Below, piece by piece: positions 2,507-33,414 of a DNA stretch of 34,533 bases. The notes under the pieces were generated by a model. It saw only the letters and a list, made by a program, of their open reading frames with translations, had not been told where the DNA came from and did no database searches. The stretch covers positions 1 to 34,533 of the IMG/VR virus record IMGVR_UViG_3300021124_000019, one strand, 5' to 3'. The position numbers were made by a program, and so were the translations under genes. Each line of letters starts with the position of its first letter. The stretch's first letter is position 1. This DNA is from a virus (Duplodnaviria; Caudoviricetes).

Positions 2507-2559
2507 AAAAAAACCCTCACAAGGAGGGCTTAATAATTTGCCTAGATAATCCTAGTATA
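2507..2559 (-). promoter_or_regulatory. Late leader motif copy 1 (upstream of MCP)
   Basis: Minus strand TATACT-aggattatct-AGGCAAA-ttatta-AGCCCTC-cttgt-GAGGGTT-TTTTT; -10 spacing deviates (TAGGAT lies 5 nt before AGGCAAA). Confidence 0.75.
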
Positions 2560-2565
2560 GTTTAT

Positions 2566-2835
2566 TTATTTTTTACTTGCAACTATTTTTTTAAGAGGTT
2601 CTTTAGACTTAAGCTTTTCTATTTCACTTTTAATAATTAATAGTTCGCTTTGTAAATTTTCCATTATATGTGTGTTTGCAAGCCTTTTTCTACCAAGTAT
2701 TGCGTGTAGCTCTTCGTAAGCTTCTTTGTATTTATCTTTGTGTATAGATAATCTAATTTGTTCAGAGATGTGCTCTGCTTCTTCACGAGTTATTAATCCA
2801 AATTCTTCTAACGCTGCTATCCACCAATTGTGCAT
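2566..2835 (-). CDS. Hypothetical protein between scaffold and MCP
   Basis: 89 aa helical/coiled-coil ORF with AAAGGA SD, co-oriented with head genes. Confidence 0.7.
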   Translation of the reverse strand: MHNWWIAALEEFGLITREEAEHISEQIRLSIHKDKYKEAYEELHAILGRKRLANTHIMENLQSELLIIKSEIEKLKSKEPLKKIVASKK

Positions 2836-2847
2836 AACTTTCCTTTC

Positions 2848-3843
2848 CTACCAATCAAGGCTATCTATTAAATTGTCTAAATCTCTACTAGTCATACCAG
2901 GTTTTACACGTGGTCTGCTAGGTGTTTGAGAATCACTTCCTTTAGCTTTAGTTGTACGCTTAGCTAGATTTTGTCTGGCTGCGTCTTCCTTTTGTAGCTC
3001 TGTGTCCATCTTATCAGGGTTTTGGTATTTGTACATACGAAATGCTTCTTCAAATCCAATGTGCTTATAAGGTCGACCAGCGTTGTACTCGTTTAAGTAT
3101 TTCTGATTAAGTTCTTCTTTAAAAGCCAAGATGTCATTTGCAAGTTTAACTCCTGGGTCATTATCAAAGTCCTTAGAGTTAGGTTGTGCTTTAAATTTAG
3201 GTAACTCACCTTTTCTTTGTAAGTCACCAATGTCTTGTCGGTCTGCGTTGTCTTCTCTTAACTTAAACTCTTGAGCTGATTTGTTAGTTTCTTGTGAACG
3301 ATAATCATTTACAAGCTTTTCAGCTTTCTGTTCGTTTAAATTATCACGTTTCATCGCAATAGTAAGTTCACTCTCGTTTTCGTATTTAAATCCAGCAGGT
3401 AACTGTTCGATTGTGTATATGTCAAATGATTCTACCTTGTCACTTCCGGGTACAGTACCTCGAACTTTAAAAGTAGATATGTTGTCTAATACAAATTGTT
3501 GTTCTGGAGTTAGTTGGTTGTTAGCTGGTGTCTCTTGTGTTGAGTTAGATGGGACTTCTTCTTCGTCTTCATCATCTTCATCTATAGAGTAACCCTCTTC
3601 AGAGTCGCTTTCTTCACTATCCTCGCCTGTTTCATCAGATTCTTCTGCGTCTTGGACTTCTTCAACTTGCTCAGTTGATTCATCCTTTTCTTCTGCAGCC
3701 TCTTCATTCTCAACTTCAGGTTTAGCATTTTTAGACTCCTCTTTTACTTCGTTAATTGGTGTTAGATTGTCATCTAAACTATCTAACTTAGCTTGTAGTT
3801 CCGGTGTAGCACTAAAACCGGGCACATTCATATCATTAGCCAT
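2848..3843 (-). CDS. Capsid scaffolding protein
   Basis: 331 aa, very acidic N-half, coiled coil, short C-terminal helix; lies between portal and MCP; AAGGAGG SD. Confidence 0.75.
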   Translation of the reverse strand: MANDMNVPGFSATPELQAKLDSLDDNLTPINEVKEESKNAKPEVENEEAAEEKDESTEQVEEVQDAEESDETGEDSEESDSEEGYSIDEDDEDEEEVPSNSTQETPANNQLTPEQQFVLDNISTFKVRGTVPGSDKVESFDIYTIEQLPAGFKYENESELTIAMKRDNLNEQKAEKLVNDYRSQETNKSAQEFKLREDNADRQDIGDLQRKGELPKFKAQPNSKDFDNDPGVKLANDILAFKEELNQKYLNEYNAGRPYKHIGFEEAFRMYKYQNPDKMDTELQKEDAARQNLAKRTTKAKGSDSQTPSRPRVKPGMTSRDLDNLIDSLDW

Positions 3844-3860
3844 AATTCCTCCTTGATGTC

Positions 3861-3869
3861 AGTATATCA
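3861..3869 (-). promoter_or_regulatory. Extended -10 promoter for scaffold gene
   Basis: TGaTATACT then 6 nt then AAGGAGG-aatt-ATG; lacks the AGGCAAA/hairpin leader. Confidence 0.55.
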
Positions 3870-3871
3870 CA

Positions 3872-6112
3872 TTAAACGGGAGGTAAAACACTAGGGTTGC
3901 CAGTGTTAGGAATTTGTGGATTGGCTGGGTTTGGTAAATTGGTTCCTGAGAATATAGAACCGCCCAACATAGCCTGTGAAGCGCCTGGAGCCATAGGTAT
4001 ATTACTCTGTGGACCCATTGGTGGCATCCCCTGTGGTGGCATACCTTGAGGTGGCATACCTTGAGGTGGCATACCAGGAGCGCTTGGTGGACCAGGATTT
4101 AACTCTTGTTCAGTAGGTTGACCGGGGTTGTAAGGCTGTAATGGTACTTTTGGACTCAAATTCATGACGTTTTCTTCGCCCATTTGGTCTAATGCCATGG
4201 TAGTTTCTAATCTGAGTAGCATTTCATCTACAAAATCAAGGTAAGCTTGCTGTTTTGTCTTGTTGAGCTTCATAAATTCGTCTCTAACCATCAATTTTCT
4301 GAGTGAAAGTACGTATTCTTTAGTTACGTGGTCAGGTTCCATTGGTTTTTTGCCATTTATAATCTCTACGTATGCTACGTAAGCCTTAGCTTCATCAATT
4401 TCATCAAGTCCATCACGTGCAAGAGCCATTGGGTCAACTTTTTGCTTAGCCCAGTTGTCGTAAAGCTTCTGTGGGTTCTGTAAATGGAGTAATTTGTAAG
4501 CATCAAGTAGTGAAATTGAAGCACCCATCTTAAGAAGTTGTAATACGACTGCTTCTTGTCGGTGATTATCAAAGGCAAGTGAGGTTCCGCCCTTTACATT
4601 GATAGCCATTCCGTTATCAATAAGGTCTCGGTGCATTGTAATATAATCAAATTCGCCATCACCACCGTTGTATACAAAGAAATGTCGTTCTGAGTACCAT
4701 ACAACCATCATCTGTACTAAGTATTGGAAGTAAGCGTTCATAAAACGGTCTATGGAACGTACATATAAGTCCTGTCGACCTGAAGCTTGATTCTTCTTCA
4801 TCATTGACTGACCTAAAGTTTCACTTGTTGTATCTCCGTCATTAGAACCAGTAAATTCAGAAGGGGTACCCATTATAGAATGGATAGTTGTACGCTGGTC
4901 CATTTTATCTTGGAATAAGAACTGTGGAATTTCAGGAGGTGGTAGTCGGAAGATTACGTCTTGTGCTCTCACGTTAGGTGGTGGAGATATAACTATTCTT
5001 TGGTTAGGGTCATCTGTAAGGTCTTGTACGTCATCTTTACTCATTCCACTCTTGGTGTCAATTACTAGAATACCGTTTGCCTTGTCAGCGACTTCCATTA
5101 ATTGTCGACCACGCTTGTTAAGAATGATTTGTACTTTGGAAGCTTGTTCTACAGAAGATGTGTAATCAATCCAGTGTTGTCCATCGTTATCAAAGTTAAG
5201 TGGGATAAATGGTTTCTTTGGTAAATCAATAAAGTTCTTTTCGTTCTTTGAATAGATGTAATGTGGGTTTCGTGATTTTTCAAGCACTAAGTTCTGAAAG
5301 TAATAGACGAGAGCTTGGTGTGGTTCAAAATCTTTATCGTAGTGAGTTAACCATACTTCTCTAACTACCATAATTTGGTCTAGCTGTTTAGAAGTACCTC
5401 GTACAATACCAGCTTCTGAATAAATAGCTTTCTTTTTCTCGGGCCAACGATTAACCATTTCATTAACTGACATTTTGACGTTCCTACAAATAAAATCAGG
5501 GTCTTCACCCATCTTGGCGTTCTTATCAATAATAACTTCTTCTGGGTTCAAAGCTATTGGAATAATCTCACCGTTCTTACCGTAGTTAGGGTCAAACTGG
5601 AAGTAAATCAAACCTAATCGTTTATTGAGTACGTTCTTAACGCTAGTTTCTAGTAATTGCTGTAGGTTTACTTTAGCTGAGTGGGCTACACATACTCTTT
5701 CAAGGTCTAAAGCGAATTGACGAGCTTGTGGTGAGTCCTGAGCTGGAGAAACTTCTGGTGATGGAGTGTTAGCTGTTAAGTAAGCTGTAATAGCTTGTTC
5801 TGCTACATAGATTTGGTTTTCTACGTAAGGTGTCTGAAACCTATAGAGTGAACGCACGTCATTTTGTTTACCTAAGTAAAAACGCATAGCTTCGTTACGA
5901 GCTTGTCTCAAATTAAAACCATCTGGTGCATCCCAATAGCCAATAGAGTCATCTATACGATTGTCTAAGTTCTTAATAATTTGATTGTCGGGAATGTCTA
6001 TTGACAAAGGAGGTAGTTGGTCTATCTGTCCACTAGGAACATCACTTAAGCGGTCTACCTTAGTGTCATTTAACGGAGGAGCGGTTTGCTCGTAATCCCA
6101 ATTATTTGCCAT
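3872..6112 (-). CDS. Portal protein (P22-like, long)
   Basis: 746 aa downstream of terminase, upstream of scaffold/MCP; Pro/Gln/Met-rich disordered C-tail. Confidence 0.85.
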   Translation of the reverse strand: MANNWDYEQTAPPLNDTKVDRLSDVPSGQIDQLPPLSIDIPDNQIIKNLDNRIDDSIGYWDAPDGFNLRQARNEAMRFYLGKQNDVRSLYRFQTPYVENQIYVAEQAITAYLTANTPSPEVSPAQDSPQARQFALDLERVCVAHSAKVNLQQLLETSVKNVLNKRLGLIYFQFDPNYGKNGEIIPIALNPEEVIIDKNAKMGEDPDFICRNVKMSVNEMVNRWPEKKKAIYSEAGIVRGTSKQLDQIMVVREVWLTHYDKDFEPHQALVYYFQNLVLEKSRNPHYIYSKNEKNFIDLPKKPFIPLNFDNDGQHWIDYTSSVEQASKVQIILNKRGRQLMEVADKANGILVIDTKSGMSKDDVQDLTDDPNQRIVISPPPNVRAQDVIFRLPPPEIPQFLFQDKMDQRTTIHSIMGTPSEFTGSNDGDTTSETLGQSMMKKNQASGRQDLYVRSIDRFMNAYFQYLVQMMVVWYSERHFFVYNGGDGEFDYITMHRDLIDNGMAINVKGGTSLAFDNHRQEAVVLQLLKMGASISLLDAYKLLHLQNPQKLYDNWAKQKVDPMALARDGLDEIDEAKAYVAYVEIINGKKPMEPDHVTKEYVLSLRKLMVRDEFMKLNKTKQQAYLDFVDEMLLRLETTMALDQMGEENVMNLSPKVPLQPYNPGQPTEQELNPGPPSAPGMPPQGMPPQGMPPQGMPPMGPQSNIPMAPGASQAMLGGSIFSGTNLPNPANPQIPNTGNPSVLPPV
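4018..4077 (-). repeat. 15-bp tandem coding repeat (GMPPQ x3 plus GMPPM)
   Basis: ggtggcataccttga-type units on + strand within the portal C-terminus. Confidence 0.8.
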
Positions 6113-6293
6113 TCTTCATTTTTCCCTTTTTAGGAGTTTTAACTTCAGATTCAGAAGATTGCATTAAGCCAGGAATACCGGGTTTAGGAATAGACAAGTC
6201 ATTATACTTGCGGTGCTGGTGTTGCTTTCCTTTATCGCTTCTTTGGACTTTGCGAATTACTTTCTGTTTCATCAAATCTTGTATTGTTGCCAT
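6102..6293 (-). CDS. Small basic protein (MATIQDLMK...)
   Basis: 63 aa Lys-rich; ATG directly follows U-tract of leader copy 2; overlaps portal start. Confidence 0.65.
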   Translation of the reverse strand: MATIQDLMKQKVIRKVQRSDKGKQHQHRKYNDLSIPKPGIPGLMQSSESEVKTPKKGKMKNGK

Positions 6294-6344
6294 AAAAAAA
6301 ACCCTTCATGAGGGCTCCTGTTTAATTTGCCTAATTTCATTATA
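6294..6344 (-). promoter_or_regulatory. Late leader motif copy 2 (upstream of small basic protein and portal)
   Basis: TATAAT-gaaatt-AGGCAAA-ttaaacagg-AGCCCT-catga-AGGGTT-TTTTTT-ATG. Confidence 0.8.
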
Positions 6345-6346
6345 CA

Positions 6347-6577
6347 TCATTGAAAAAGTATTTTATAGCGATTTTTACAAGAGTGGCAGACGATTTCAAT
6401 ATATTGTTGTGATGGTGAGTACGTATCCCAGCCAAGCCCTATGTCGTTGGAAATTGTAATTTCATGTGTGTTAGCTCTAAACAAAGTTCTACCACATCCG
6501 CACTTAAATTTTTGAGGTCTTTCGACTGGCGCAGGAAACAACTTAGCGTGAAATATCATTAAAATATTCAAAACCAT
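6347..6577 (-). CDS. Com-like zinc-ribbon protein, putative RNA/DNA-binding regulator
   Basis: CGCGRTLFRAN...IEIVCHSCKNRY parallels phage Mu Com (CxxCNKLLFKAD...IEIRCPRCK, recalled); overlaps terL stop. Confidence 0.7.
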   Translation of the reverse strand: MVLNILMIFHAKLFPAPVERPQKFKCGCGRTLFRANTHEITISNDIGLGWDTYSPSQQYIEIVCHSCKNRYKILFQ

Positions 6578-7851
6578 TCTCCCATCTCTCGCTGTTCACG
6601 AGACACACGTTTTAATATCTCTTCTAAGTCTATATGAAAAGCATCTGCAGTACCATCCTCATTTACTACGAAAGATTTTTTCTTAGCGTCTGGTGGAGCT
6701 ATTGTGACTACACCAGAAGTTCTTTCTTTAGCGTATGTGTAAGTTTCTAATGCGTAGCGTAGTGCGTCTAACAGGTGGTCGTTGCCGCCTTCTGGTTGAT
6801 TAATAATCTTGCCGTCTTTGTCAGTTTTCCATAAGTAGTTTCGATATTCCTTGAGTAAATTTGTACTCTTCTTAGTGACGGAGATACGCTGGTCTTGTAT
6901 GTATGAGATTCCTTGTAAGATAGAACCTCTACCTTTCTGAGCCGGAACAATTGGTATACCGTAACTTCCAATTTCGTCAATAGATTTAGGTTCAGCTGAG
7001 TCAGCATACACAAGCGTTTCAGGGTCGTTTGTAGAATCTAAAAAGTCAGCTATGTCTTTGTTGCTTAATCCTTTCCTGTAGAGAACTTCGTTTAATATAA
7101 GTCCTCCATTGTAGCGGTAGATATCAATAATAGCTGTAGGGTCGTTTGTATATCCAAAGTCCAATCCTCGCCTTTCGAGTTTGGCTTCGTGAGGTATGTG
7201 GTCAATAATAGCCCAGTCTTTGTAAATACGAGACTCAACTTCACCAAGCTGTCCTAGACCGTATACAAGCCACCAGTTTTTGTTGTGTTTGTGTGACTCA
7301 ATATCCTGAACAATTGAATCGTCTAATCCTTCATTGTCCTTGTAAGTAATTGTAAGAAAGTCTACGTCATAGTGTGGAAGGATTTCGGTATACCACCAGA
7401 ACTCGTTAGTAGGGTTCCAGTCTAGCCAAATAGTCTGACGGGTACGAACTCGGAGTTGGTCAAACTCTTCATACCCAATGTTGTTGGCTTCGTTCATAAA
7501 AAGCACATCACGTCTTGGTCCTCTAACTTTACCTGGCTGGTCTGCACTAAAAAATTCTATGCGTGAGCGGTTTGAGAAAGTATACGTGAAATCAGTCTTA
7601 GACCATTCATCATCTTTGTAATAGTTAGTATCCTCCATAATAGAAAGAAAGTCTCTCATAGCGCCCCTACGTAAGTGAGGAAAAGATTCTGAAACAACTG
7701 AAATAAGAATCCCAGGATTAGTCTGTGCTTGGTCTATTAAGATTTGAAGTATCGAAATAGTCTTCCCAGCTGAGGTCCCTCCGGCTATCCCCCTAATTCT
7801 TTTGTCTAGCTTAAGCAGTTTAGTTGTAGCCGATGTTTGGATGTAGTTCAT
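6568..7851 (-). CDS. terL: Terminase large subunit (PBSX-type)
   Basis: Walker A GGTSAGKT, Walker B LFMNEA, nuclease motifs GLDFGYTNDP, YADSAEPKSI, NDHLLDALRY. Confidence 0.95.
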   Translation of the reverse strand: MNYIQTSATTKLLKLDKRIRGIAGGTSAGKTISILQILIDQAQTNPGILISVVSESFPHLRRGAMRDFLSIMEDTNYYKDDEWSKTDFTYTFSNRSRIEFFSADQPGKVRGPRRDVLFMNEANNIGYEEFDQLRVRTRQTIWLDWNPTNEFWWYTEILPHYDVDFLTITYKDNEGLDDSIVQDIESHKHNKNWWLVYGLGQLGEVESRIYKDWAIIDHIPHEAKLERRGLDFGYTNDPTAIIDIYRYNGGLILNEVLYRKGLSNKDIADFLDSTNDPETLVYADSAEPKSIDEIGSYGIPIVPAQKGRGSILQGISYIQDQRISVTKKSTNLLKEYRNYLWKTDKDGKIINQPEGGNDHLLDALRYALETYTYAKERTSGVVTIAPPDAKKKSFVVNEDGTADAFHIDLEEILKRVSREQREMGEWF

Positions 7852-7893
7852 AAATTTAACCTTACACCACCAGACGACTCAATTTCAACCCCA

Positions 7894-8084
7894 AACAGGG
7901 GTAACGTCGCACAACATATAATGTACGACTAGGACTAACAGGGGTAGGCATATACTAGGCAATAGACTTGACAGTTTGCATAGGGGTAGGCTAAGACAGT
8001 TTATATAATCCCGCAATTTTCGATACCTTAACAGGGGTGCGCATAAAAGCCTATTATACCATATTATTCAGGCTTAACAGGGGT
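7894..8084. repeat. Five spaced AACAGGGGT-type direct repeats between terS and terL
   Basis: AACAGGGGT at 7894, 7937, 8030, 8076; variant CATAGGGGT at 7979. Confidence 0.75.
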
Positions 8085-8465
8085 GGCTTCAATAACCTTA
8101 TTACTAAGCCCACCTAGTATTGGCTTGACAATGTGGGTATTGTCGACCTGTTTAGAGTCCTTATACCCGTATTTATTCTTAAGTACGAATATAGCCATGG
8201 TTGTGTTGAGTTTATTAGCTAACGCCCCTGTAACTAACCTATGTTCTAAGATAGTTTCTATTCTTAGCATTGTATCTAGTACCGGCTTATTATCTAGGTT
8301 GCTAGACTTGAATTCAGACCACTTATGAGCATTTATACCTCTGTTGGCTAGCGATTGACCTATAAAAACTATGCTCTCATCTTCTAATACTTCTAATTCA
8401 ATGCTTTTTATTATTGTAGTAACATTATCAGGTAAGTATCTTCTTTTTATCTGTTGTTTGCTCAT
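8064..8465 (-). CDS. terS: Terminase small subunit (P22 gp3-like)
   Basis: 133 aa upstream of terL; GALANKLNTTMAIFVLKNKYGYKD resembles gp3-type DNA-packaging proteins. Confidence 0.8.
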   Translation of the reverse strand: MSKQQIKRRYLPDNVTTIIKSIELEVLEDESIVFIGQSLANRGINAHKWSEFKSSNLDNKPVLDTMLRIETILEHRLVTGALANKLNTTMAIFVLKNKYGYKDSKQVDNTHIVKPILGGLSNKVIEATPVKPE

Positions 8466-8473
8466 ATAGGGTT

Positions 8474-8482
8474 ATTATAGCA
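8474..8482 (-). promoter_or_regulatory. Extended -10 promoter for terS (near-leaderless)
   Basis: TGcTATAAT 8 nt upstream of the terS ATG; no SD in between. Confidence 0.6.
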
Positions 8483-8569
8483 TTTATTCTACTAATGTAC
8501 TTATCCACAATTTCTAATCTGTTATTGTATGAAACTAATATAAAAGTATCATTTTGTATATAAATAGTG

Positions 8570-9664: not shown

Positions 9665-9880
9665 ATGAATTTATATTTAACAGTATTTGAACGAATAGAT
9701 GCCGACCCGGATTGGTTTACTTGGACTAGTGAAAATGAGCCAACAGATAATCAAGAACTAAAAAAGATAAAACAACATTTAAAAGAAAATGAGGACGAAT
9801 CAGAAATAGGCGATTATTGGACTAATAGAATATCAGAGGTAGACGGTTATAAAATTAAACTAGTAAAGGAAATAAAATAA
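9665..9880 (+). CDS. Hypothetical early protein
   Basis: Start moved to ATG 9665 after AGGGA SD and hairpin CTAGGCAT-N9-ATGCCTAG. Confidence 0.7.
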   Translation: MNLYLTVFERIDADPDWFTWTSENEPTDNQELKKIKQHLKENEDESEIGDYWTNRISEVDGYKIKLVKEIK

Positions 9881-10002
9881 TGAGTGATAGAGTCATAAGA
9901 ATTAGCGAAGAACATTATAAAAGATTAAAAGCCTACTCAATTAAAAATAAGCGTACTTTAAAAGCATGCGTAGAAATAATGATTGATAGAGTAGCGCTAT
10001 GA
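9880..10002 (+). CDS. Small ribbon-helix-helix-like DNA-binding protein
   Basis: MSDRVIRISEEHYKRLKAYSIKNKRTLKACVEIMIDRVAL (40 aa): alternating beta strand then two helices; TAATG overlap; absent from ORF track. Confidence 0.6.
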   Translation: MSDRVIRISEEHYKRLKAYSIKNKRTLKACVEIMIDRVAL

Positions 10003-10073
10003 TAATACTAGAAATATTGGGCGCTTATTTAACAGGTACTTTAATTGCTTATATTATAACTTTTAAAAATTAG
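9999..10073 (+). CDS. 24-aa hydrophobic peptide
   Basis: MIILEILGAYLTGTLIAYIITFKN; ATGA overlap with previous gene. Confidence 0.45.
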   Translation: MIILEILGAYLTGTLIAYIITFKN

Positions 10074-10080
10074 GCATCAA

Positions 10081-10112
10081 CAGCCCTTATCCCGTAGCTA
10101 GGATGAGGGTTG
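10081..10112 (+). other. 12-bp RNA hairpin at the end of the first early operon
   Basis: CAGCCCTTATCC-cgtagcta-GGATGAGGGTTG with G:U pairs on + strand; no clear U-tract. Confidence 0.55.
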
Positions 10113-10339
10113 AAATATGACTTTAATTTTAAGATAGTGGCTCTTAATGTGTAACACAGATGGCAATAGCTTCGTATTTTTAAACGCTATCCACTATCAC
10201 CATCAGCATTAGGCTAGGTTGTACATTAGGGCTATCGCACAGAGCCTAGACTTATCACACACTATAAGGCTATCCGACCGAGAGCATATCTAAAGTTTTG
10301 AATAGTGCTATAAACTATTTTATTAAAGTATTTTTCCTA

Positions 10340-10411
10340 TTGACATTTAATTTTTAGATTGCTAACATATTTATATTAAACAGTAGCAAGCCCCTAGCAA
10401 TAGGGGTTTTT
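10340..10411 (+). ncRNA. Promoter plus immediate intrinsic terminator, candidate ~35-nt RNA
   Basis: TTGACA-17 nt-TAACAT (with TG extension) then AAGCCCCTA-gcaa-TAGGGGTTTTT at 10388-10411. Confidence 0.5.
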
Positions 10412-10474
10412 CTATTATCAAACAGTAACAATAGTTAATATTTAAACTATCACAATTAAGCATTTAAGTCAATT

Positions 10475-10538
10475 AAAAAGAGCCGGTAAAATTAAGAAAA
10501 TCCGGCTCAATTATAAATAGGGGGTGTGTATGCACACA
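10475..10538 (-). ncRNA. Candidate sRNA 2
   Basis: TGtTATAAT (10544-10552), 6 nt, GTGTG-cata-CACAC hairpin, C-rich linker, GAGCCGG...CCGGCTC-TTTTT terminator. Confidence 0.55.
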
Positions 10539-10551
10539 TTCGCATTATAAC

Positions 10552-10609
10552 AAAAAAGCAAGCTCTGTAAAGAGCCTGCTAAACGAAAGACGCCTTTATT
10601 TTGAAGGCA
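10552..10609 (-). ncRNA. Candidate sRNA 1
   Basis: TGaTATAAT (10615-10623), 6 nt, GCCTT-N7-AAGGC hairpin, linker GTCTTTCGTTT, AGCAGGCTCT-ttac-AGAGCTTGCT-TTTTT terminator. Confidence 0.6.
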
Positions 10610-10732
10610 TTTAAATTATATCATAACTAGGGCTTATCGTAATAATTTAAGACTTACACCTTTAAGGTTGCGACCCTAGTAATTAAATAATAACTTATAC
10701 ACAGGTTTAGTCAATATTTAACATTATTAGTA

Positions 10733-10761
10733 TTGACATTAACGACTTGTTGTAGTAGTAT
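10733..10761 (+). promoter_or_regulatory. Sigma70-type promoter for second plus-strand operon
   Basis: TTGACA(10733-10738)-17 nt-TAGTAT(10756-10761). Confidence 0.7.
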
Positions 10762-10912
10762 GTAGTTATGGTTAAGTTAAGGCTTGACCAAGTACCAAAT
10801 ACAATTTTCCACTCCACGAAAGGGGGCTAGGCTAATTTATAGAGTTTATAGCCCCTGATTAGTCTAGTAGAGATTGAGTTAGGTAGGTGTTAAATAAACG
10901 AAAGGAGCTTTT

Positions 10913-11101
10913 ATGAAGTTGCACTATGATTTTTTCATAGGTATATTTCTAGGCATTATAATTCTTGACTATTGTAAGTTAAGAATAAATAGCTGGAAAA
11001 ATATAAAATTTAGCCACGATGCTAAAGATAAAAAAAAAATTAAGTCAATGAACAGAAAGTCAGATTTAATTTTAAGTCAGTTTGAACAGGGTTTAATATG
11101 A
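10913..11101 (+). CDS. Small membrane-anchored protein
   Basis: 62 aa, N-terminal hydrophobic helix, basic tail; AAGGAG SD. Confidence 0.65.
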   Translation: MKLHYDFFIGIFLGIIILDYCKLRINSWKNIKFSHDAKDKKKIKSMNRKSDLILSQFEQGLI

Positions 11102-14168: not shown

Positions 14169-14540
14169 ATGAGTAAAACAACTATAAATGAATTAGAAAT
14201 AAACGGACAAACTTATGTACTTAAAGGTACAGACAATAAAAAATCCGAACAATTAAATGGAATGGACTTTGTAGTAGTCCGCACCTATAGTGCTGGAGTA
14301 TTTGCAGGTTACCTTAAAAACCGAGATGGTAAAGAAGTGCATTTAGTAGACGCTATCAGATTATGGTATTGGGACGGGGCAGCTTCTTTGAGCCAATTAG
14401 CTACAGATGGAGTAAGCAAACCTAATAATTGTAAGTTTGCTGTACCAGTAAATGTAACATTGACCGAAGCAGATGAAATTATAGAAACAACTGATAAAGC
14501 ACGAGAGTCAATTCAAGGTGTAAAGTCATGGGTAGTTTAA
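14169..14540 (+). CDS. DUF6948-like phage protein
   Basis: VVVRTYSAGVFAG...RLWYWDGAASLSQLA.DGV signature; AAGGAG SD before ATG 14169. Confidence 0.75.
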   Translation: MSKTTINELEINGQTYVLKGTDNKKSEQLNGMDFVVVRTYSAGVFAGYLKNRDGKEVHLVDAIRLWYWDGAASLSQLATDGVSKPNNCKFAVPVNVTLTEADEIIETTDKARESIQGVKSWVV

Positions 14541-14761
14541 CAGAATTAAATACTGAAGATATTGCTTTTGGCTATGACTCTGGCTCTGGCTATGGCTATG
14601 ACTCTGGCTCTGGCTCTGGCAATGGCTATGGCTTTAGCTCTGGCAATGGCTCTGGCTATGGCAATGGCTATGGCTCTGGCTCTGGCTCTGGCAATGGCTC
14701 TGGCTATGGCAATGGCTATGGCTCTGGCAATGGCTATGGCAATGGCACAGGAAAAGGATAG
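14528..14761 (+). CDS. Gly-rich (Gx)n repeat protein
   Basis: GSGYGNG repeats; such ORFs commonly follow DUF6948-like genes. Confidence 0.65.
   Translation: MGSLTELNTEDIAFGYDSGSGYGYDSGSGSGNGYGFSSGNGSGYGNGYGSGSGSGNGSGYGNGYGSGNGYGNGTGKG
14570..14746 (+). repeat. Hexamer microsatellite GGC(TCT/TAT/AAT)
   Basis: About 29 consecutive 6-bp units with few deviations. Confidence 0.9.
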
Positions 14762-20206: not shown

Positions 20207-20259
20207 AAAAAAGCCCCCATAGAAGAGGGCTGCTTAGTTTGCCTTTACATATTTTATCA
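20207..20259 (-). promoter_or_regulatory. Late leader motif copy 3 (upstream of basic-protein/lysis operon)
   Basis: TGaTAAAAT-atgtaa-AGGCAAA-ctaagc-AGCCCTC-ttctat-GGGGGCT-TTTTT. Confidence 0.8.
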
Positions 20260-20279: not shown

Positions 20280-20540
20280 ATGAGATTAGTACCAATCAAC
20301 AAATGTGTTTTAGTAAGATTAAACGATGATTCGCAATTGATTGATGTGCCAGACAAACAGTTTGCCACACAAGCGAATGGCCTAGTAGTTAGTGTTGCTA
20401 AAGATAGTTCCGAATACGATTACTTAACTGGTAAAATTGTTTACTTTGAAGAGTACCGTGACTCAGCACAGGTTGAGTTTGATGATGAAAAATTTGCTTT
20501 TATAAAATTAGAAGATTTGAAAGGATACCAAGATGAGTAA
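20280..20540 (+). CDS. groES: Co-chaperonin GroES (Cpn10)
   Basis: LVPINKCVLVR, GLVVSV, GKIVYFEEY, FAFIKLEDL pattern; directly upstream of groEL. Confidence 0.8.
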   Translation: MRLVPINKCVLVRLNDDSQLIDVPDKQFATQANGLVVSVAKDSSEYDYLTGKIVYFEEYRDSAQVEFDDEKFAFIKLEDLKGYQDE

Positions 20541-22095
20541 AATGTCCAGACATATTTGTCATGGTGAAGAGTTTCAAGCTGCCAAAGACAAAGCAGTAGA
20601 AGCTGCTTACAACCTAGCTAAAGCTGCATACGGACCTAGTGCCGGTAACGTAGCTATTGAGAACAACTTTGGTTATCCAACTGTATCCAGAGATGGTGTC
20701 ACAAACCTTCGCAAACTATACTTGGAAGATGGTAACGAAAATATAGCTGCCCGAATTATGGTTCAGGCTAGTGAAAAGAGTAATAAGATAGTTGGAGATG
20801 GTACAACCGCTGTTGTAATACTCAGTTACCATCTTTACAAAGAAGCCATGAAGTTAATTAGCGGTGGCTACAATAGAATGATAGTCCGCAAGATGCTAGA
20901 CAACACCGCATCAGAAATGATTAAAAGAATTGATGAGTTCAAAGTAGAAGCTACACCTGAACTAGCTAGATACGTAGCTAAAGTATCTGCAAGTGACGAA
21001 GCCATTGGTGATATGGTTGCTGATGTAATTGAAAAAGTTGGTACCGAAGGAAACATTATTGTAGAAGAGTTCGATGGTATTGGAAGTTACTCAGAAGAAG
21101 TTGAAGGTTTGTACTGGAGAAAAGGTTTCAGTAATGAGTTTCTTATTAAGAACTTATCTGGACTAGAATCTCGCCTGAACGATATAGACATACTTATAAC
21201 CGAAAAGACATTACAAACTGCATCTGATATTGCTCCAATACTAAACAAGATTGTAGAGCGTGCTGGGCGTGGTGTAGACCTGCTTATAATTGGTGAGGTA
21301 GTAGAAGAAGCTTTAGCTACTCTTGCTCTTAACAAAGTAAAAGGTAACATAGACGCTACTCTAGTTGATGTAGACGTACACGGACCAATGCGAACCTTAT
21401 TCTTAGAAGACATAGCTGCTGTAACAGGTGGAAAGATATTCCCTACTGGTGCTAAGTCAAGTTCATTCAATATAGATATGCTTGGTAGTGCTGGTAAAGT
21501 TGTAGTCAACACTAGTTCGACTACCATTATGGAAGGCCACGGAGCAACAGAAGACATTGATGCACGTGTAAATGAATTACGTATACAACTAAAAGAAGCT
21601 GAAAGCTTAGTAGACAAACAAGAGATTAAGAAAAGAATATCTGCAATCACTGGTAAGATTTCAATCATCCGTGTAGGAGCACCAACAGAAGTAGACCGAG
21701 GCGAAGTCCAACTACGAGTAGAAGATGCTATAGCAGCAACACAGAGCGCTCTCAGAGATGGTATTGTTCCTGGTGGTGGTATTACTTTAGCCCGTGTATC
21801 GACTGATGATTTCAAAGACGCATTTCAAGCACCATTCCAGACCTTATTAGAAAACGCTGGCTACAATCCTAAAGAAGGTTTGTTCCGAGCACTTGCTGAG
21901 AAAGATAAATGGGCTGGATATAACTTAAGAAAAGAAATAACTGATTACAAACCTGATAATTTATTGGAAGAAGGAATCATTGACCCTGCAGAGGTTGTCA
22001 AGGAAGCTGTACGTAACGCTACTAGCGTAGTTGGTACACTGATTACTACCACAGTTGGCATTACTTATGTTGACCGTGAAGTTAAGGCCGACTAA
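20533..22095 (+). CDS. groEL: Chaperonin GroEL (Cpn60)
   Basis: YGP, SRDGVT, VGDGTT, LEDIAAVTGG, RVEDA, GIVPGGG, GIIDP motifs; 520 aa; no GGM tail. Confidence 0.95.
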   Translation: MSKMSRHICHGEEFQAAKDKAVEAAYNLAKAAYGPSAGNVAIENNFGYPTVSRDGVTNLRKLYLEDGNENIAARIMVQASEKSNKIVGDGTTAVVILSYHLYKEAMKLISGGYNRMIVRKMLDNTASEMIKRIDEFKVEATPELARYVAKVSASDEAIGDMVADVIEKVGTEGNIIVEEFDGIGSYSEEVEGLYWRKGFSNEFLIKNLSGLESRLNDIDILITEKTLQTASDIAPILNKIVERAGRGVDLLIIGEVVEEALATLALNKVKGNIDATLVDVDVHGPMRTLFLEDIAAVTGGKIFPTGAKSSSFNIDMLGSAGKVVVNTSSTTIMEGHGATEDIDARVNELRIQLKEAESLVDKQEIKKRISAITGKISIIRVGAPTEVDRGEVQLRVEDAIAATQSALRDGIVPGGGITLARVSTDDFKDAFQAPFQTLLENAGYNPKEGLFRALAEKDKWAGYNLRKEITDYKPDNLLEEGIIDPAEVVKEAVRNATSVVGTLITTTVGITYVDREVKAD

Positions 22096-25929: not shown

Positions 25930-25980
25930 AAAAAAACCCTTCCTAAAGAGGGCTTGGTTAGTTTGCCTGACTTGATTATA
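25930..25980 (-). promoter_or_regulatory. Late leader motif copy 4 (upstream of ejection genes)
   Basis: TATAAT-caagtc-AGGCAAA-ctaacca-AGCCCT-ctttagga-AGGGTT-TTTTT-atttt-ATG. Confidence 0.8.
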
Positions 25981-27407: not shown

Positions 27408-27712
27408 TAGAAGCTCCCTGAACCAATTTGTACCCTTACATTACCTGTTCCGTCTGTAACGGTGTACGCACCTTGTACGTTCTGCTGACCGGTATTCTGA
27501 CCCGGTAGAATTGTAGTAGGTGCTGTTTGCTGTTGTATCTGCTGTTGGTAAACTAAAGCTTCTAAAGAAAGATAAGGTATAGTACCGTAGGTATTACTAA
27601 CTTCTCCAGTTTGAGATGGTTGTATTTGAAAGTTTAAGTTACCAAACGTAGGAGTAAATGTCGAATACATTAAAGACTGGTTTGGCATGTTTTGTGCTAG
27701 TTCTTGGTCCAT
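27407..27712 (-). CDS. Small tail protein
   Basis: 101 aa ending VTDGTGNVRVQIG; coupled in tail operon. Confidence 0.55.
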   Translation of the reverse strand: MDQELAQNMPNQSLMYSTFTPTFGNLNFQIQPSQTGEVSNTYGTIPYLSLEALVYQQQIQQQTAPTTILPGQNTGQQNVQGAYTVTDGTGNVRVQIGSGSF

Positions 27713-27720
27713 GTATCCTC

Positions 27721-29841
27721 CTAAGTGTGGTCTTTACGTATTGATGTTTCTTCTTCTCTTGGGTCTATTTCTATTGTAACACCTGTAATAGTTGGCGCTG
27801 AGGTTGCTGATGAAGAACAGGTACCGCTAAAACCTATTTGTATTTCATAGAATCTAGCGTTGTTCAACTCTACTACTATTGAGGTATCATTAACAGCTGC
27901 AGCAAATGGAGTACCAGATACGGGGTCTGCAGTAATTTGAGCGCCTCTATCTATAGAATAATAAGCATTTAATGTGGTACCAGCTGGAAGAGGCAGGAAG
28001 TTTATTTTAAGTCTGTGAGCTTTCTTATGTTTGTAACGTACTCCACCATCATATATAAGTGACTGCCAGTTGAATGTTGGTGCCGGTGTCGAACTGTTGT
28101 TTAGTATGTCTAAACCATAGCGAGTCACTGAACCTGAATCAGTGTATTGCCATGAAGTATACATAGTATCAACAAAGTTTTTAATCATACCAAGTTGCAT
28201 GTTATTAGATGCGGAATAGTTTTGACCGACTATACTAGCAAGAGATGATGCGTATGAATAACAGAATGAGTTAGGAAATGTGAGTTCTACAGAACCCCAG
28301 GAATATATACCATAGTTGAGATTAATATTAGTAGTTGTTGAAGGATAACCAATCATCAATAAGTTATATCGAATATCCATCATGTTTGGGTTGACTATTG
28401 TAGAGTCATTCGTATTTAAATAATCAGAGTTTTGGTAGGCTAGGTAACGTACTTTAATTACTTGTTGTCCACCACCCCAAGCAAATAATGAACCTGCACA
28501 TACAAAGTAAGTAATGTTATTAAGTGTCTGTAATGAGTATGGTGCACCCATTGGTATTTCAATTTTGAAGTTATAGTTTGAGTTAATGCCATCCCAGAAG
28601 TATAAGTAACCGTCTTGGAAACTCTTATTGGCATTTGTACTTCTTTTTTCTGCAGCAATAACTATGTACTGATTGTTTACTGTCATACCACATACTTCAT
28701 AACCTATATCCAAAGCTAAGATATGTCTTTGAAAACCTGATGTACCACCTGAAGGGTTTGGTGGACTTGAATCGTTTAAGAAATCATAACTAGCAACGAA
28801 ACCACCATTACCGATGTAAAGTTTGTTAGAGAATATCAAAGCAGGATGCCATGTATTGTTAGTTGTAATCAATCTATTTATAAATAATACAAAGTTAGTA
28901 CCAGTCATATCGCTTGCACTTATGGTAGCTATAGTTGTGGTGTCACTAGATACACTTGAAGTCAAATGGAAATGGTAAGAAGCATTAGCACCGGTAAAGT
29001 TAGCGTTTGGTATAACAACCACTGGTGTTGAAAAAATAAAGTTGTTCCAACCTACTACTAAGTTTGCATTAGTTATTGTCGATGTCGCTAGTGTGTTATT
29101 AAGTGAATCGTGGAATGTCAGAGTAACGTCACCTGTACCTTTGACAGGGAAGTACACAGCTATAGAATAAACTGGAGTTAGGTCTGGTATGAATGAACAC
29201 AAGTTAGTAGAAGTTTCAACTACAGTATTTGGTAATATGTATGAATTAGTGAGCGTGTTTGTAATGATGCTCGTGTAGTTAGAAGGAGTAATTGCTTGAC
29301 CAGCATAACTTACTATGTTGTTTCTAATAGTGTTGTTCTGACCATCGTAGGCACCATTGACTGTGTTGTACTGATAGATTACGTTGTTAGATACAGATGC
29401 TGATGGACCAAATTGGTCTAGCAATAGCTTAGGTGTAGCTGATGTAACACGACTATAAACCGTTACTGCATTTTGTGTAGTAATGTAAATAGAATCTGAA
29501 TACTGGTTGTACACAATACCGGCAGCACCATTAGAGTTAAGTTTACCTATTACACTGATTACACCAGATGTGTTTATTTTATAAAACCAACCTTGATTAC
29601 CTACAGCGTATCGTACACCATTAGCATCCTGACACATGCAAGTAATGAGGTCTCTAAGTGTAGATGAAACTGGACTCATCCCTGGTAAAACTGACATTTG
29701 AGATGGCTTGGAACGAAAATCAAGACCCTGTGAGTAGTAAAAAGAATTAGCTATACCATACTTATAGTCGACAGCCATACCACCTATGAATGAGTTTAAG
29801 TGGATTTTATCTTTTTCTGAATTGTGAGGACCTTTAGCCAT
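27721..29841 (-). CDS. Tail nozzle/stabilisation protein (P22 gp10-like beta-propeller)
   Basis: 706 aa, N-terminal FIGGM, beta-rich; follows adaptor gene. Confidence 0.65.
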   Translation of the reverse strand: MAKGPHNSEKDKIHLNSFIGGMAVDYKYGIANSFYYSQGLDFRSKPSQMSVLPGMSPVSSTLRDLITCMCQDANGVRYAVGNQGWFYKINTSGVISVIGKLNSNGAAGIVYNQYSDSIYITTQNAVTVYSRVTSATPKLLLDQFGPSASVSNNVIYQYNTVNGAYDGQNNTIRNNIVSYAGQAITPSNYTSIITNTLTNSYILPNTVVETSTNLCSFIPDLTPVYSIAVYFPVKGTGDVTLTFHDSLNNTLATSTITNANLVVGWNNFIFSTPVVVIPNANFTGANASYHFHLTSSVSSDTTTIATISASDMTGTNFVLFINRLITTNNTWHPALIFSNKLYIGNGGFVASYDFLNDSSPPNPSGGTSGFQRHILALDIGYEVCGMTVNNQYIVIAAEKRSTNANKSFQDGYLYFWDGINSNYNFKIEIPMGAPYSLQTLNNITYFVCAGSLFAWGGGQQVIKVRYLAYQNSDYLNTNDSTIVNPNMMDIRYNLLMIGYPSTTTNINLNYGIYSWGSVELTFPNSFCYSYASSLASIVGQNYSASNNMQLGMIKNFVDTMYTSWQYTDSGSVTRYGLDILNNSSTPAPTFNWQSLIYDGGVRYKHKKAHRLKINFLPLPAGTTLNAYYSIDRGAQITADPVSGTPFAAAVNDTSIVVELNNARFYEIQIGFSGTCSSSATSAPTITGVTIEIDPREEETSIRKDHT

Positions 29842-29844
29842 TTA

Positions 29845-30744
29845 TTACCCCGATATTACACCAGGAGGTAGCCAGAAGATGTTAAAGATATTATCTGTAA
29901 GCGGTTTCTGTACGACCCCGGTTGTTTTGTTTGCGTATGCTTGCTTGAATTGCATAAGTAAATCTTCATACAATCCTTTATATAGTGTAGCACTAGCCAT
30001 GTCATTTCGCTTCAAATAATATTGGTACGCTGCATAGTACACAAGACCTAAGTGATACTCTTCTGGGATGTCTGGTACTAAACCTATTTGACATGCCACA
30101 GCAGTTCCTGTAGGACCTTGATAATAGTTTTCAAGAGTAAGCTGTGATGCTGTAGCACCTACAATTGGGTACCAGTTACCATCTGAACCATCAGTTACTG
30201 TAAAGTACATACCATTCATATTAGTATTAAAGTTTGTACTTGGGCTTGTAACATACTGTGAACCGTTAGTAACAGTTACAGTCGTAGTGGTGACATCGTC
30301 TACGCTCATGTCAATCATACGTGGTTCGTAAGATATTATAAGACCTGCAGTTTGACTTTGTGATGGTGTAGGATACAATCCGATTTCATTTTTACCTCTG
30401 ACAAAATAGAATTGAGGCACAATTACTGTGTTAGATGGAATCACATTGAAACGGTTCCATAGTGCTTCTGAATCCACGTTAACTAGTGGCCAGTTATATC
30501 CACCAGTATTAGCACGTACTTCTGTAATACGTACCATGTCTTCTGGAAATGTGTAGTATTGCTGTCCTGCAACCAAGTTAGCTGTGACTTCTTTACGAGT
30601 CCAGTATCTCCTTGATTGGTTTTTAAATAACCTCAGAGCGTGGTTAATGTCTTGTTTTGAATTAACAAGGTCTTGAGTATCAGTTGTTGTACTGACACCT
30701 GTTATGTTTGCTACTCTGTTATATAGTTGTGTAAATGTTATCAT
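29845..30744 (-). CDS. Head-tail adaptor protein
   Basis: DINHALR, LVAGQQYYTFPED, IGLYPTP, PDIPEEYHLGLVYYAA motifs typical of podovirus adaptors. Confidence 0.75.
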   Translation of the reverse strand: MITFTQLYNRVANITGVSTTTDTQDLVNSKQDINHALRLFKNQSRRYWTRKEVTANLVAGQQYYTFPEDMVRITEVRANTGGYNWPLVNVDSEALWNRFNVIPSNTVIVPQFYFVRGKNEIGLYPTPSQSQTAGLIISYEPRMIDMSVDDVTTTTVTVTNGSQYVTSPSTNFNTNMNGMYFTVTDGSDGNWYPIVGATASQLTLENYYQGPTGTAVACQIGLVPDIPEEYHLGLVYYAAYQYYLKRNDMASATLYKGLYEDLLMQFKQAYANKTTGVVQKPLTDNIFNIFWLPPGVISG

Positions 30745-30760
30745 TGTTTATTTCTCCTCA

Positions 30761-31687
30761 TTATGTTGCACTCACTAGATAACCATCAAATATTAAAGGA
30801 ACATACATACTCGTTGTTTGGTTGTATCCGTAAGCCGAAACTGTATCTCCAATGTTTAATTGTATGAACTTTGAAAATGAATAAACGAGTGATTGTCCAT
30901 TTCCAGGTGAATAACTTGTGTAATATGTAGGTGTTGAACTAAATGAATTAACATTTATTCCCAATACTACAGTATTTGTACTTGAGGCAGAAGGACTAGC
31001 TATAAGTGAAAAATAATAAAAACCTGCTATAGGTGCGGTAAATTGAAAATTGGTTGTTATATCAAAATTATTTCCTGTATCAAAAGTTTTAGCATTAAAT
31101 TGAATTTTTGTATAAGCAGATGCAGTAACAGTTTGAGTAGTATTTCTATATACACTAAACTTGTAAGGGTTATATACTTTACTAGTATACAATCCTGCCG
31201 CAGCCACTTGCGTATTAGTTATAGATGAAGCCGTAAGGTAACTAGCATTAATACTACCAGTAGTTACAGGCACTCCGTAAATAGTACCTGAGTTGCTTGT
31301 TGTGTAACCTGTCAGTGTGTCAGCAGATATAGTTGCGTTAGTAATTGTAGGACTGTTTATTGTAGGGCTTGTAAGTGTTTTGTTAGTCAATGTTTGGCTT
31401 GTAGTTGTCTGAACTACTGTTGCAGGAAATGTAGGTGTTCCACCAATAGTATAAGTACCAGATAATGTTCCAGATAATGTTGCACCATTTATTGTTGGAG
31501 AAGTCAATGTCTTATTAGTAAGTGTTTGACTATCTGTTAATCCTACTGGTTGACTAGATAAGTTAAGATAAGTGTTTCTAGATATAGCTTGAGTAGCTGT
31601 TAATGAATTAGTGTAAATAGGAAGTAAATCATTAGTAGCATCTATGGTGGTTGCAGTTGGTAGTGAGTTTATTGTTACATTACTCAT
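30761..31687 (-). CDS. Tail fibre with C1q-like C-terminal domain
   Basis: QTLTNKTLTSPTI repeats; FSVYR...IQFN...FTAPIAGFYYFS...QLNIGDTV...FDGYLV C1q pattern. Confidence 0.75.
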   Translation of the reverse strand: MSNVTINSLPTATTIDATNDLLPIYTNSLTATQAISRNTYLNLSSQPVGLTDSQTLTNKTLTSPTINGATLSGTLSGTYTIGGTPTFPATVVQTTTSQTLTNKTLTSPTINSPTITNATISADTLTGYTTSNSGTIYGVPVTTGSINASYLTASSITNTQVAAAGLYTSKVYNPYKFSVYRNTTQTVTASAYTKIQFNAKTFDTGNNFDITTNFQFTAPIAGFYYFSLIASPSASSTNTVVLGINVNSFSSTPTYYTSYSPGNGQSLVYSFSKFIQLNIGDTVSAYGYNQTTSMYVPLIFDGYLVSAT

Positions 31688-32595
31688 GATGATTGGTAAA
31701 CCCCTTGCAAAGTAATTTGGTTAGTGTTAGCCCATGTATTTGGAACAGTTGCAGAAACTCCAGTTATTTGAACATAAGTAGGGGAAACTAAAGAAGCTAG
31801 TAATTGACATTTATTAGCACCTGTTGTGTTGTTTATTGCACCATATAAGAAATAATTACTACCTCCTGCAAAACCCCAACCTGTAGCTATCATATTTTGA
31901 GTATTACCAGTTGTTGGATAAGTAGTTGTATTGTTGTTCACTGGTAAAGTGAAGTAGGGGTTTGTTCCTACCGAAGAAGTTGTACCTAAAACTACTTGCA
32001 TAGTGAAATAAACATTTTTACCAACTGTGACGTAATAACAATTTAATGTTCCATTACCTATAGTGAAGTTTGTAAATGTTGGAGTCCAAGTAGTCCAAGC
32101 CCATGAAGAATCGGATGTTAATTTTGTTAAAGGTACACTAGATGATGTTAATGAAGAACCACTAATTGCACCACTTGTTATAGATACACCATATATTGTT
32201 CCACTGTTTGAAGTTGTATATCCAGTAAGTGTATCTGCGCTTATTGTAGCGTTTGTAATGGTTGGTGAATTAATAGTTGGACTTGTTAGCGTTTTGTTGG
32301 TTAAAGTCTGCACAACAGTGTTCTGTGTGACTGAGGAAGGAAAGGTTGGTGTACCACCTATTGTGTATGTTCCAGAAAGGGTGCCACTTAAAGTAGCACC
32401 GTTAATAGTAGGTGATGTAAGTGTTTTGTTTGTCAGCGTCTGGGAATCACTCAGTCCGACAGGCTGGGAAGCTAAATTAAGAAAAATATTTCGGTTAATT
32501 TGTTGAGTAGTATTAAGGGAATTTGTAACAATAGGAAAAGTATCCGCTGTTGCGTCAATTGTAGCTGCGACTGGTAGTGAGGTTATTGTTGCCAT
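31684..32595 (-). CDS. Tail fibre paralogue with a different C-terminal head
   Basis: Start at 32595 (MATITSLP; TAATG overlap); shares N-half with neighbour; WTTWTPT...GKNVYF...FTLPV head. Confidence 0.75.
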   Translation of the reverse strand: MATITSLPVAATIDATADTFPIVTNSLNTTQQINRNIFLNLASQPVGLSDSQTLTNKTLTSPTINGATLSGTLSGTYTIGGTPTFPSSVTQNTVVQTLTNKTLTSPTINSPTITNATISADTLTGYTTSNSGTIYGVSITSGAISGSSLTSSSVPLTKLTSDSSWAWTTWTPTFTNFTIGNGTLNCYYVTVGKNVYFTMQVVLGTTSSVGTNPYFTLPVNNNTTTYPTTGNTQNMIATGWGFAGGSNYFLYGAINNTTGANKCQLLASLVSPTYVQITGVSATVPNTWANTNQITLQGVYQSS

Positions 32596-32957
32596 TATGC
32601 TCCTGATATTGTCCACTGTGTTATGTTGCGTGGTGAGGTGTAAGTAGTATTTGTTACTAAATTATCTCCATCGTTTGTAATAATAAAACTATTACTGTTA
32701 CTTATTATATACCTAGTACCTACTGTTACAATATAGCCGTTTCCACTTGGTGGTTGCCATTTACTTCTGTTTTTAGTGCTTTGATTCCAGCTTGTAGCGT
32801 ATCTTTGTTTGTACGTCTGTGGCTGAATGTTTAGCGTGGTACCAGATTGAGTTGTTAAATTACTTAGACTTTGTGTCTGTATAGCAGCTCCGGTTGAAGG
32901 TATTGCAAAACCTGTACCGGATGGCGGGGTCCAAACTGTGGGATTCCTGACTGCCAT
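32595..32957 (-). CDS. Fibre-associated structural protein
   Basis: 120 aa with duplicated W(T/Q)PPSG(T/N)G(F/Y) module. Confidence 0.55.
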   Translation of the reverse strand: MAVRNPTVWTPPSGTGFAIPSTGAAIQTQSLSNLTTQSGTTLNIQPQTYKQRYATSWNQSTKNRSKWQPPSGNGYIVTVGTRYIISNSNSFIITNDGDNLVTNTTYTSPRNITQWTISGA

Positions 32958-32965
32958 TTAGAAAC

Positions 32966-33343
32966 CTATACTACCTTAAATTGGAAATATACTGTGTTTG
33001 TACCGCTTGAAGGCTTAAGATAAATGTTTGTCATTCTTGCACAATCAATAGTCCAAAGTGTGTTTGCAGGTATTAAAAGACCTTGTGCGTAAGATGCGTC
33101 TTCGCCTACTTGAATTGTAACTGTTGAGTTAACTGTAAACTGTACCGCATTAGTTGGTACTGTTAAAGCTACTCCTGAACCACTCATGTTGGTTTGTGGA
33201 GAAGTTACAGGTGTTCCTGTAGCATCTTGAGATACAACTGTGTTACCAGTAGTACCAGTCATTTCTACACGGTTCTGGTCCTGAACTAATGAACCAAAAG
33301 ATTGTATACCTTTTTGCCTAATAGCTGTTGGTGTATATGCCAT
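32966..33343 (-). CDS. Small beta-sandwich virion protein
   Basis: 125 aa Thr/Val-rich; AAGGAG SD; first gene after leader copy 5. Confidence 0.6.
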   Translation of the reverse strand: MAYTPTAIRQKGIQSFGSLVQDQNRVEMTGTTGNTVVSQDATGTPVTSPQTNMSGSGVALTVPTNAVQFTVNSTVTIQVGEDASYAQGLLIPANTLWTIDCARMTNIYLKPSSGTNTVYFQFKVV

Positions 33344-33362
33344 GTTTGCTCCTTATTAAATT

Positions 33363-33414
33363 AAAAAGCCCCTCAAAGAAGGGCTCCTAGGTTTTGCCTG
33401 CCTAAATTATATCA
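33363..33414 (-). promoter_or_regulatory. Late leader motif copy 5 (upstream of tail operon)
   Basis: TGaTATAAT-ttaggc-AGGCAAA-acctagg-AGCCCTT-ctttg-AGGGGCT-TTTT. Confidence 0.8.

Follow-up and report, generated by a model that had tools for sequence, protein, structure and literature searches.

What lets RNA polymerase pass into the late operons of a phage whose late promoters are each closely followed by an apparent intrinsic terminator? The question is raised by the whole linear contig of a Caudoviricetes virus (IMG/VR record IMGVR_UViG_3300021124_000019; 34,533 nucleotides, nt; hereafter the window), which is about 85% complete and carries five such leaders, each with two short boxes downstream of the promoter. 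The reading that we favour, with a probability of roughly 0.6, is that a Com-like zinc-ribbon protein encoded at 6347-6577 binds the two-box motif in the nascent leader RNA and prevents termination at each late operon. The leaders and the gene are the following (ORF, open reading frame; aa, amino acids):

2507..2582, minus strand: leader 1, ahead of the major capsid gene (1381-2469); -35 TTGCAA at 2582-2577, -10 TATACT at 2559-2554, box 1 AGGCA at 2543-2539, box 2 AGCCC at 2530-2526, terminator ending at 2507.
6294..6344, minus strand: leader 2, ahead of a 63-aa ORF, the portal gene and a scaffold-like gene; -10 TATAAT at 6344-6339, box 1 at 6332-6328, box 2 at 6316-6312, terminator ending at 6294.
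20207..20259, minus strand: leader 3, ahead of the lysis block; extended -10 TGnTAAAAT at 20259-20251, box 1 at 20244-20240, box 2 at 20231-20227, terminator.
25930..25980, minus strand: leader 4, ahead of a 350-aa and a 666-aa ORF; -10 TATAAT at 25980-25975, box 1 at 25968-25964, box 2 at 25954-25950, terminator.
33363..33434, minus strand: leader 5, ahead of the tail/adaptor block; -35-like TTGTTA from 33434, extended -10 at 33414-33406, box 1 at 33399-33395, box 2 at 33385-33381, then the terminator.
6347..6577, minus strand: 76-aa four-cysteine zinc-ribbon ORF, Com-like, candidate antiterminator.

All five minus-strand sites of the original prediction are present, and the pattern AGGCAAA-N4..11-AGCCC-N4..16-GGGYTT was matched five times in the window and not once in any of 100 dinucleotide shuffles. 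AGGCAAA by itself is mildly enriched (12 occurrences against a shuffle mean of 6.25, with 12 reached in 2 of 100 shuffles). As had been proposed, the -10 hexamer lies exactly 6 nt ahead of AGGCAAA in four copies (2 to 5), copy 1 having TATACT at 10 nt and TTGCAA 17 nt further upstream, and four copies directly follow the stop codon of the upstream gene; leader 2 begins 3 nt past that of the zinc-ribbon gene, and copy 3 is divergent from groES. Every copy folds into a hairpin followed by a U-run (-8 to -15 kcal/mol), though taken singly these hairpins are near the shuffled level (z 0 to -1.9); the predicted terminated RNA measures 37–39 nt if the first A of AGGCA is taken as +1, and 10–14 nt separate the end of box 2 from the U-run. 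A motif-blind scan for a -10 site, a hairpin with U-run and an ORF recovered the five leaders together with one unrelated plus-strand match. Behind them we found capsid, portal, lysis (DUF6496, XhlA-like and CHAP endolysin, after leader 3) and tail/adaptor genes (including the SU10 adaptor, after leader 5), in agreement with the operons first assigned; the ejection-protein label given to the two large unannotated ORFs of leader 4 is one by position only. The check for an already described element gave no Rfam match at gathering score, either in the window or in 100 kb from three relatives.

Four capsid-based scans, plus a capsid-alignment scan of a genome collection (with one true locus there), yielded 142 loci in which the upstream DNA was long enough, 111 being distinct. 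A promoter and then a terminator were observed in 94 of the 111 distinct major-capsid leaders (in 85 of the 94 together with a TTG at -35 spacing) and a promoter without a terminator in 17. On this comparison the leaders are a family-wide element of P22/SU10-like phages, whose hosts are probably Saccharibacteria. We also analysed 40 whole or near-whole genomes, window included, and in 14 of them, picked after inspection as having the window's box type, a -10 followed by AGGC and AGCC was matched 91 times. A terminator accompanies 72 of these matches, all 72 on the capsid strand and two to eight per genome, some of the terminators being weak (-6 to -8 kcal/mol) and two or three of the 72 leaders looking spurious; the 19 terminator-less matches include two in a non-coding region of the window (see below) and at least two with a terminator missed by the threshold. 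One threshold-missed leader, in G009, lies ahead of structural genes on the opposite strand, so that the leaders follow late genes and not a strand. Eight genomes devoid of the zinc-ribbon gene, including TM7 phage DolZOral124_53_65, keep promoter-like sites before the capsid and other late genes and have no capsid terminator.

The distributed promoter-proximal termination switch originally envisaged before the late operons gains from this conservation (72 leaders in 14 genomes) and from the relatives that keep promoters without terminators, but AGGCAAA alone is unlikely to be the recognised unit; its last two A's and the fixed 6-nt spacing are not kept in relatives. The window pattern is unspecific outside the phage family, as seen when the collection was scanned with it (120 loci taken from an estimated ~980), the -10 lying exactly 6 nt upstream in 1 of the 120 and most loci resembling unrelated terminators with an A-run. 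Across 301 genomes of the class of G008 (the likely host class), the leader pattern gave seven matches in six genomes, none followed by a terminator U-run.

What is conserved is a pair of boxes. Among the 72 leaders box 1 is AGGCA in 64 and box 2 AGCCC in 69, the inter-box spacer is 2–11 nt and the trailing AA of AGGCAAA is not kept; the -10 stands 6–14 nt from box 1 in 71 leaders, which places this box within the transcript, yet not fixed at +1. In 54 folds the 5' arm of the terminator is made by box 2, with most of box 1 left unpaired, in 16 both boxes lie in a longer 5' arm, and in two only box 1 is paired, at least one box being in the terminator stem in all 72. The retention of box 1 where the terminator does not need it, with freely varying spacings, fits recognition of RNA over DNA. 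Within more distant genomes the box variants are again uniform: AAGCC-N-GAGCA (G008), AGCCC-TCA-GAGCT (G013), AGCC-T-GAGCC (G015, G016 and G046), AGAC...AGTC (G044) and AGGT...AGCCG (G047, G049 and G050). Boxes that are homogeneous per genome and differ between clades suggest a co-evolving phage partner.

Three other views of the boxes were discarded. That AGCCC lies wholly within the loop in some relatives was too strong, its AGC being usually paired and only the last C's free; a fixed +1 start or reiterative transcription, as in pyrG, was rejected on the 6–14 nt range; and a c-di-GMP-like riboswitch, suggested by the likeness of GGCAAA, was rejected on the missing Rfam match and the unconserved A-run. 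Box pairs lacking a terminator U-run, some with a longer stem, were also seen in 5' leaders after the zinc gene in L165, L187, L192 and L182, before family 247 in G014, G017, G034 and G035 and before the capsid gene in G032; they are possibly devices of translational control or relics.

Positions 2–4 of box 1 (GGC) can pair with positions 2–4 of box 2 (GCC) in a mini-hairpin of 3 base pairs (bp). Over 94 leaders, 262 of 282 box positions pair against a shuffled mean of 255.9, and 243 are Watson–Crick against 232.0, a value reached in none of 5000 shuffles; with the 17 distinct box types the figures are 36 against 29.6 (p 0.002). Changes on both sides of GGC/GCC gave GAC/GTC (L285, L292), GGT/ACC (L188) and AGC/GCT (L194). 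The recognised unit is likely to be the two-box mini-hairpin rather than AGGCAAA alone. On paper this mini-hairpin and the terminator exclude each other because both use the same GCC. In the window copies the former is far weaker, at about -2.5 kcal/mol where the terminators reach -8 to -15, so that it would need a stabilising partner.

The candidate for such a partner is the zinc-ribbon protein. Its gene sits between terL and the portal gene in close relatives, was present in 24/27 and 16/27 records in two overlapping searches, and encodes four cysteines that are invariant in 32/32 aligned homologues, with predicted zinc binding. When the 40 genomes were compared by gene family (497 families), its observed distribution came closest to that of the leaders, with the gene found in 30 of 31 leader-positive genomes and one of nine leader-negative ones; the next best families have eight mismatches. 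In the leader-positive genome without it (G042), the last codons of the gene stand at the contig end and are followed by a leader. The tree has four changes with G042 counted as negative, two of them forced by supported branches, and with so few independent changes the Fisher value of 1e-6 overstates the evidence from co-occurrence. The protein occurs in 2 of the 301 genomes of the class of G008, both times on phage contigs. One of these two, G139, is a distant homologue found by protein alone; its contig, from a related phage, has four leaders of a variant box type preceding portal, capsid, tail and one other gene. By these searches, gene and leader motif are phage-specific. Three genomes (G014, G017 and G034) have a promoter-like site of the gene's own, with no terminator between. 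Distant homologues of ~150–170 aa (P0035, P0041, P0043, P0052, P0059, P0060, P0079 and P0091) contain two tandem zinc-ribbon units, and the single-unit protein may act as a dimer.

The likeness to Mu Com comes from hhalign, which gave a probability of 90.8% to Mu Com and of 95.0% (P 3.7e-8) to a 16-sequence Com alignment, over 30–34 columns with a ~20-residue insertion. Both are small four-cysteine zinc fingers with a similar layout, RCxxCxxxLF...IExxCxxC; the window family differs in this insertion and in an extra N-terminal strand. Com is a translational activator with the loop motif CC-N2..3-GAG (PMC6483171). Of the 12 leaders of G008 and G013, nine carry this motif and three have N4; the GCC-N3-GAGC core recurs at the Mu mom site. 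Most CC and GAG letters are missing from the window boxes, where the C-G closing pair and the final A of the loop persist. In both systems the short RNA hairpin, predicted here, is closed by C-G with purine-A at the 3' end of the loop. In both, a competing RNA structure would be switched, binding being putative here, with the difference that Com's target is one translation-inhibiting stem and the targets here are several promoter-proximal terminators. No mom-like gene was found among the 53 window ORFs scanned (contig about 85% complete). Two AlphaFold models of the zinc ribbon (predicted local distance difference test scores of 75 and 73) had no Foldseek match at E 0.001 and a best Z of 3.9 in a further structure comparison, the sequence had no match in PDB below E 0.001, and ESM Atlas returned unnamed small clusters; these structure predictions and searches neither support nor exclude the Com link.

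Several observations weigh against the proposed role of the protein or its descent. The PF10122 cut-off was not reached (2/28 members match, best E 0.018), and only one of 75 further homologues matches that family, scoring 20.9 bits where 22.9 are required; weak matches to other zinc ribbons (eS27, RPB12) occur as well, the hhalign comparison having been made with Com only. The full CC-N3-GAG is seen in one of the five window leaders (copy 5), and the Com-type expression also has four to five uninspected matches in G035 and G038. The 10–14 nt from box 2 to the U-run would leave a tight time window for binding. As regards the mini-hairpin, its outer pair fails in 13/94 leaders, about five automatic box picks are visibly wrong, the scoring was written after the variants had been seen, and the shuffles ignore relatedness, the signal coming from few events. 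In six genomes (G014, G017, G034, G035, G038 and G040) the capsid gene was the only one at which a box-bearing terminator leader was found. In G031 (86% complete) the zinc-ribbon gene is present and no leader was found; G032, which has no zinc-ribbon gene, retains the two boxes ahead of its capsid gene but no terminator; and all eight gene-less genomes fall in one 15-genome branch, corresponding to ~1–3 independent losses.

The mechanism that we propose also involves the operon upstream of the portal gene:

6568..8482, minus strand: terS (8064-8465) and terL (6568-7851), with a TGnTATAAT site at 8482-8474 that lies 8 nt ahead of the start of terS; no terminator leader was seen at this site.

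The two terminase genes and the zinc-ribbon gene are likely co-transcribed from this site. Extended -10 sites 8–15 nt before start codons were also seen at several other genes (besides 8474-8482 on the minus strand, in W01 and in relatives), a placement that suggests leaderless or near-leaderless mRNAs. At the late operons, the host RNA polymerase of sigma-70 type would start at or just before AGGCA and stop by default after about 37–39 nt. As a product of the unattenuated terS-terL operon, the zinc-ribbon protein would accumulate and bind the mini-hairpin as Com binds its short hairpin, holding it against the terminator with which it cannot coexist and opening all five operons together; the delay until enough protein is present would be the late timer. 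We infer promoter use, termination, binding, the direction of the effect and its timing from the sequences. The wider proposal is that a family of Saccharibacteria phages times all its late operons by one Com-derived zinc ribbon, which would act locally in every 40-nt leader, reading a mini-hairpin of 2–3 bp there and preventing termination, with diverged pairs that could be used as orthogonal modules; we rate it slightly better than an even bet.

Phage late switches are mostly new sigma factors, DNA-binding activators or factors that ride on RNA polymerase, and in the lambda Q type one late promoter feeds the whole late operon. Here there are five or more promoters, each with its own terminator and site, and the site is within the transcript and overlaps the stem. 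With lambda pR'/Q and Xp10 P7 the system has in common that an intrinsic terminator precedes the late genes and would have to be overridden by a phage protein; PMC6624301 describes such polymerase-riding late factors and P7 in late antitermination, with N, Q and gp39 listed alongside. The likeness to pR'/Q drawn at the outset holds for purpose and not for parts, as each site overlaps its terminator and no Q-family gene was found (PF06530 in 0/1 record and none in the Pfam scan of the window ORFs, from which 15% of the genome may be missing). BglG/LicT with its RAT, HutP and ANTAR proteins offer another parallel: in a short leader, an RNA structure that is weak by itself is stabilised by the protein and, overlapping the terminator, precludes it; as in the BglG/RAT type, the putative protein site overlaps the 5' arm of the terminator, with at least one box paired in 72/72 leaders. 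The differences would be another protein fold, no sensor domain, a stem of 2–3 bp and a role in phage timing, and no CAT/PRD, HutP or ANTAR domain was found by Pfam among the 53 window ORFs. By analogy, the switch would resemble Com in recognition and BglG-type systems in outcome. Protein-gated attenuation and phage late antitermination are both already known kinds; for a Com-like zinc ribbon with repeated promoter-proximal terminators, we found no description in Rfam or in the literature, searched mostly by title.

The same protein could instead act through RNA polymerase, the boxes loading it and hairpin formation being blocked processively, as with lambda N/Q, Xp10 P7 or gp39. This is the alternative that survives best, and we still consider it unlikely. 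P7 lets RNA polymerase pass intrinsic terminators ahead of late genes (PMC6624301), the few nucleotides that separate box 2 from the U-run would be well suited to a factor carried by the polymerase, and the zinc ribbon has weak sequence matches to those of RNA polymerase; however, a processive factor would have no need of separate boxes at every terminator, at least one of which is in the stem in all 72 folds, and there is no Q match. Nearly as probable is the view that the leaders work as leaky constitutive attenuators, give rise to small RNAs of 40 nt or are opened by a host factor or metabolite, their link with the zinc ribbon reflecting shared ancestry only. The few independent losses, the broken pattern in G031 and G032 and the weaker terminators (-6 to -8 kcal/mol) speak for it, but the clade-specific homogeneity of the boxes suggests a phage partner, none of the 301 sampled genomes of the likely host class showed the element as a terminator leader, and Rfam has no match.

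That the zinc-ribbon protein binds the boxes to another effect, be it termination-promoting negative feedback, translation as with Com, or DNA binding at the initially transcribed region, seems to us improbable. Com itself is a translational activator (PMC6483171) and some U-run-less box pairs lie in 5' leaders (the portal leaders of L165, L187 and L192, and one each in G014, G034 and G035); against this, the ribosome-binding sites of leaders 1, 3 and 5 are downstream of the U-run and outside the stem, spacers of 2–11 nt show no helical phasing, and terminators are missing from genomes without the gene, which would follow if passing them required the protein. Very improbable is an antisense RNA from the conserved non-coding region 10070-10410 that pairs with both boxes and opens the terminators: the minus-strand end of the region is complementary to a window box pair and the region is downstream of a strong promoter-like site, but among all fetched loci it is confined to the window, G020, part of G011 and two further loci (with a marginal 48-position match in G047), its complementary end is not kept in L137, and it is absent from most leader-bearing complete genomes.

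The region 10070-10410 is likely an undescribed structured RNA on its own account. It has 73% identity over 326 nt in L145/G020 and is found also in L132, L137 and partly G011; in four sequences, 16 of 54 pairs of its minus-strand consensus fold have changes on both sides. A strong promoter-like site (10571-10544) points into it, and Rfam gave no match to it, with three sub-threshold matches within 9900-11000. Two extra box pairs without a U-run lie at 10072-10115 (plus strand) and 10247-10229 (minus strand), the former preceded by a promoter-like site and forming a 12-bp hairpin of high stability (-19.6 kcal/mol, z -4.25); they could possibly be a decoy or chance occurrences.

According to a Pfam scan of its 53 ORFs, the window encodes a P22/SU10-like portal and adaptor, a terminase, a CHAP endolysin and its own GroES and GroEL (20280-22095, plus strand), the GroEL family being found in 39/40 genomes. 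Its nearest named relative by capsid protein is the TM7 phage DolZOral124_53_65, at 56.7% identity, so that the host is probably a member of the Saccharibacteria, judging from this one record. The major capsid homologue of the TM7 phage is a gene annotated as homeodomain-like protein (MG269973, L313, 18550-19626; 56.7% identity); its report (PMC6509639) describes the phage as being without an identifiable capsid protein. Two small plus-strand ORFs were also noted. One of 40 aa (9880-10002) looks like a putative ribbon-helix-helix repressor, and the other, of 77 aa (14528-14761), is made of GSG/GYG/GNG repeats and adjoins a DUF6948 gene.

If the favoured reading is true, these phages would have a different late-switch design, repeated at each late promoter and worked by an RNA-binding zinc ribbon of ~75 residues, and thus a new way of timing late genes. 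Mu Com, hitherto known for activating the translation of a single gene, would become linked to antitermination of transcription, and the switch would be, as far as the literature search shows, the first regulatory circuit for Saccharibacteria phages. Its components are very small and depend on nothing beyond a promoter of the sigma-70 type and an intrinsic terminator, which makes the switch testable in E. coli, and the diverged protein–RNA pairs (AGGC/AGCC, AGAC/AGTC and AAGC/GAGC) may serve as compact orthogonal switches.

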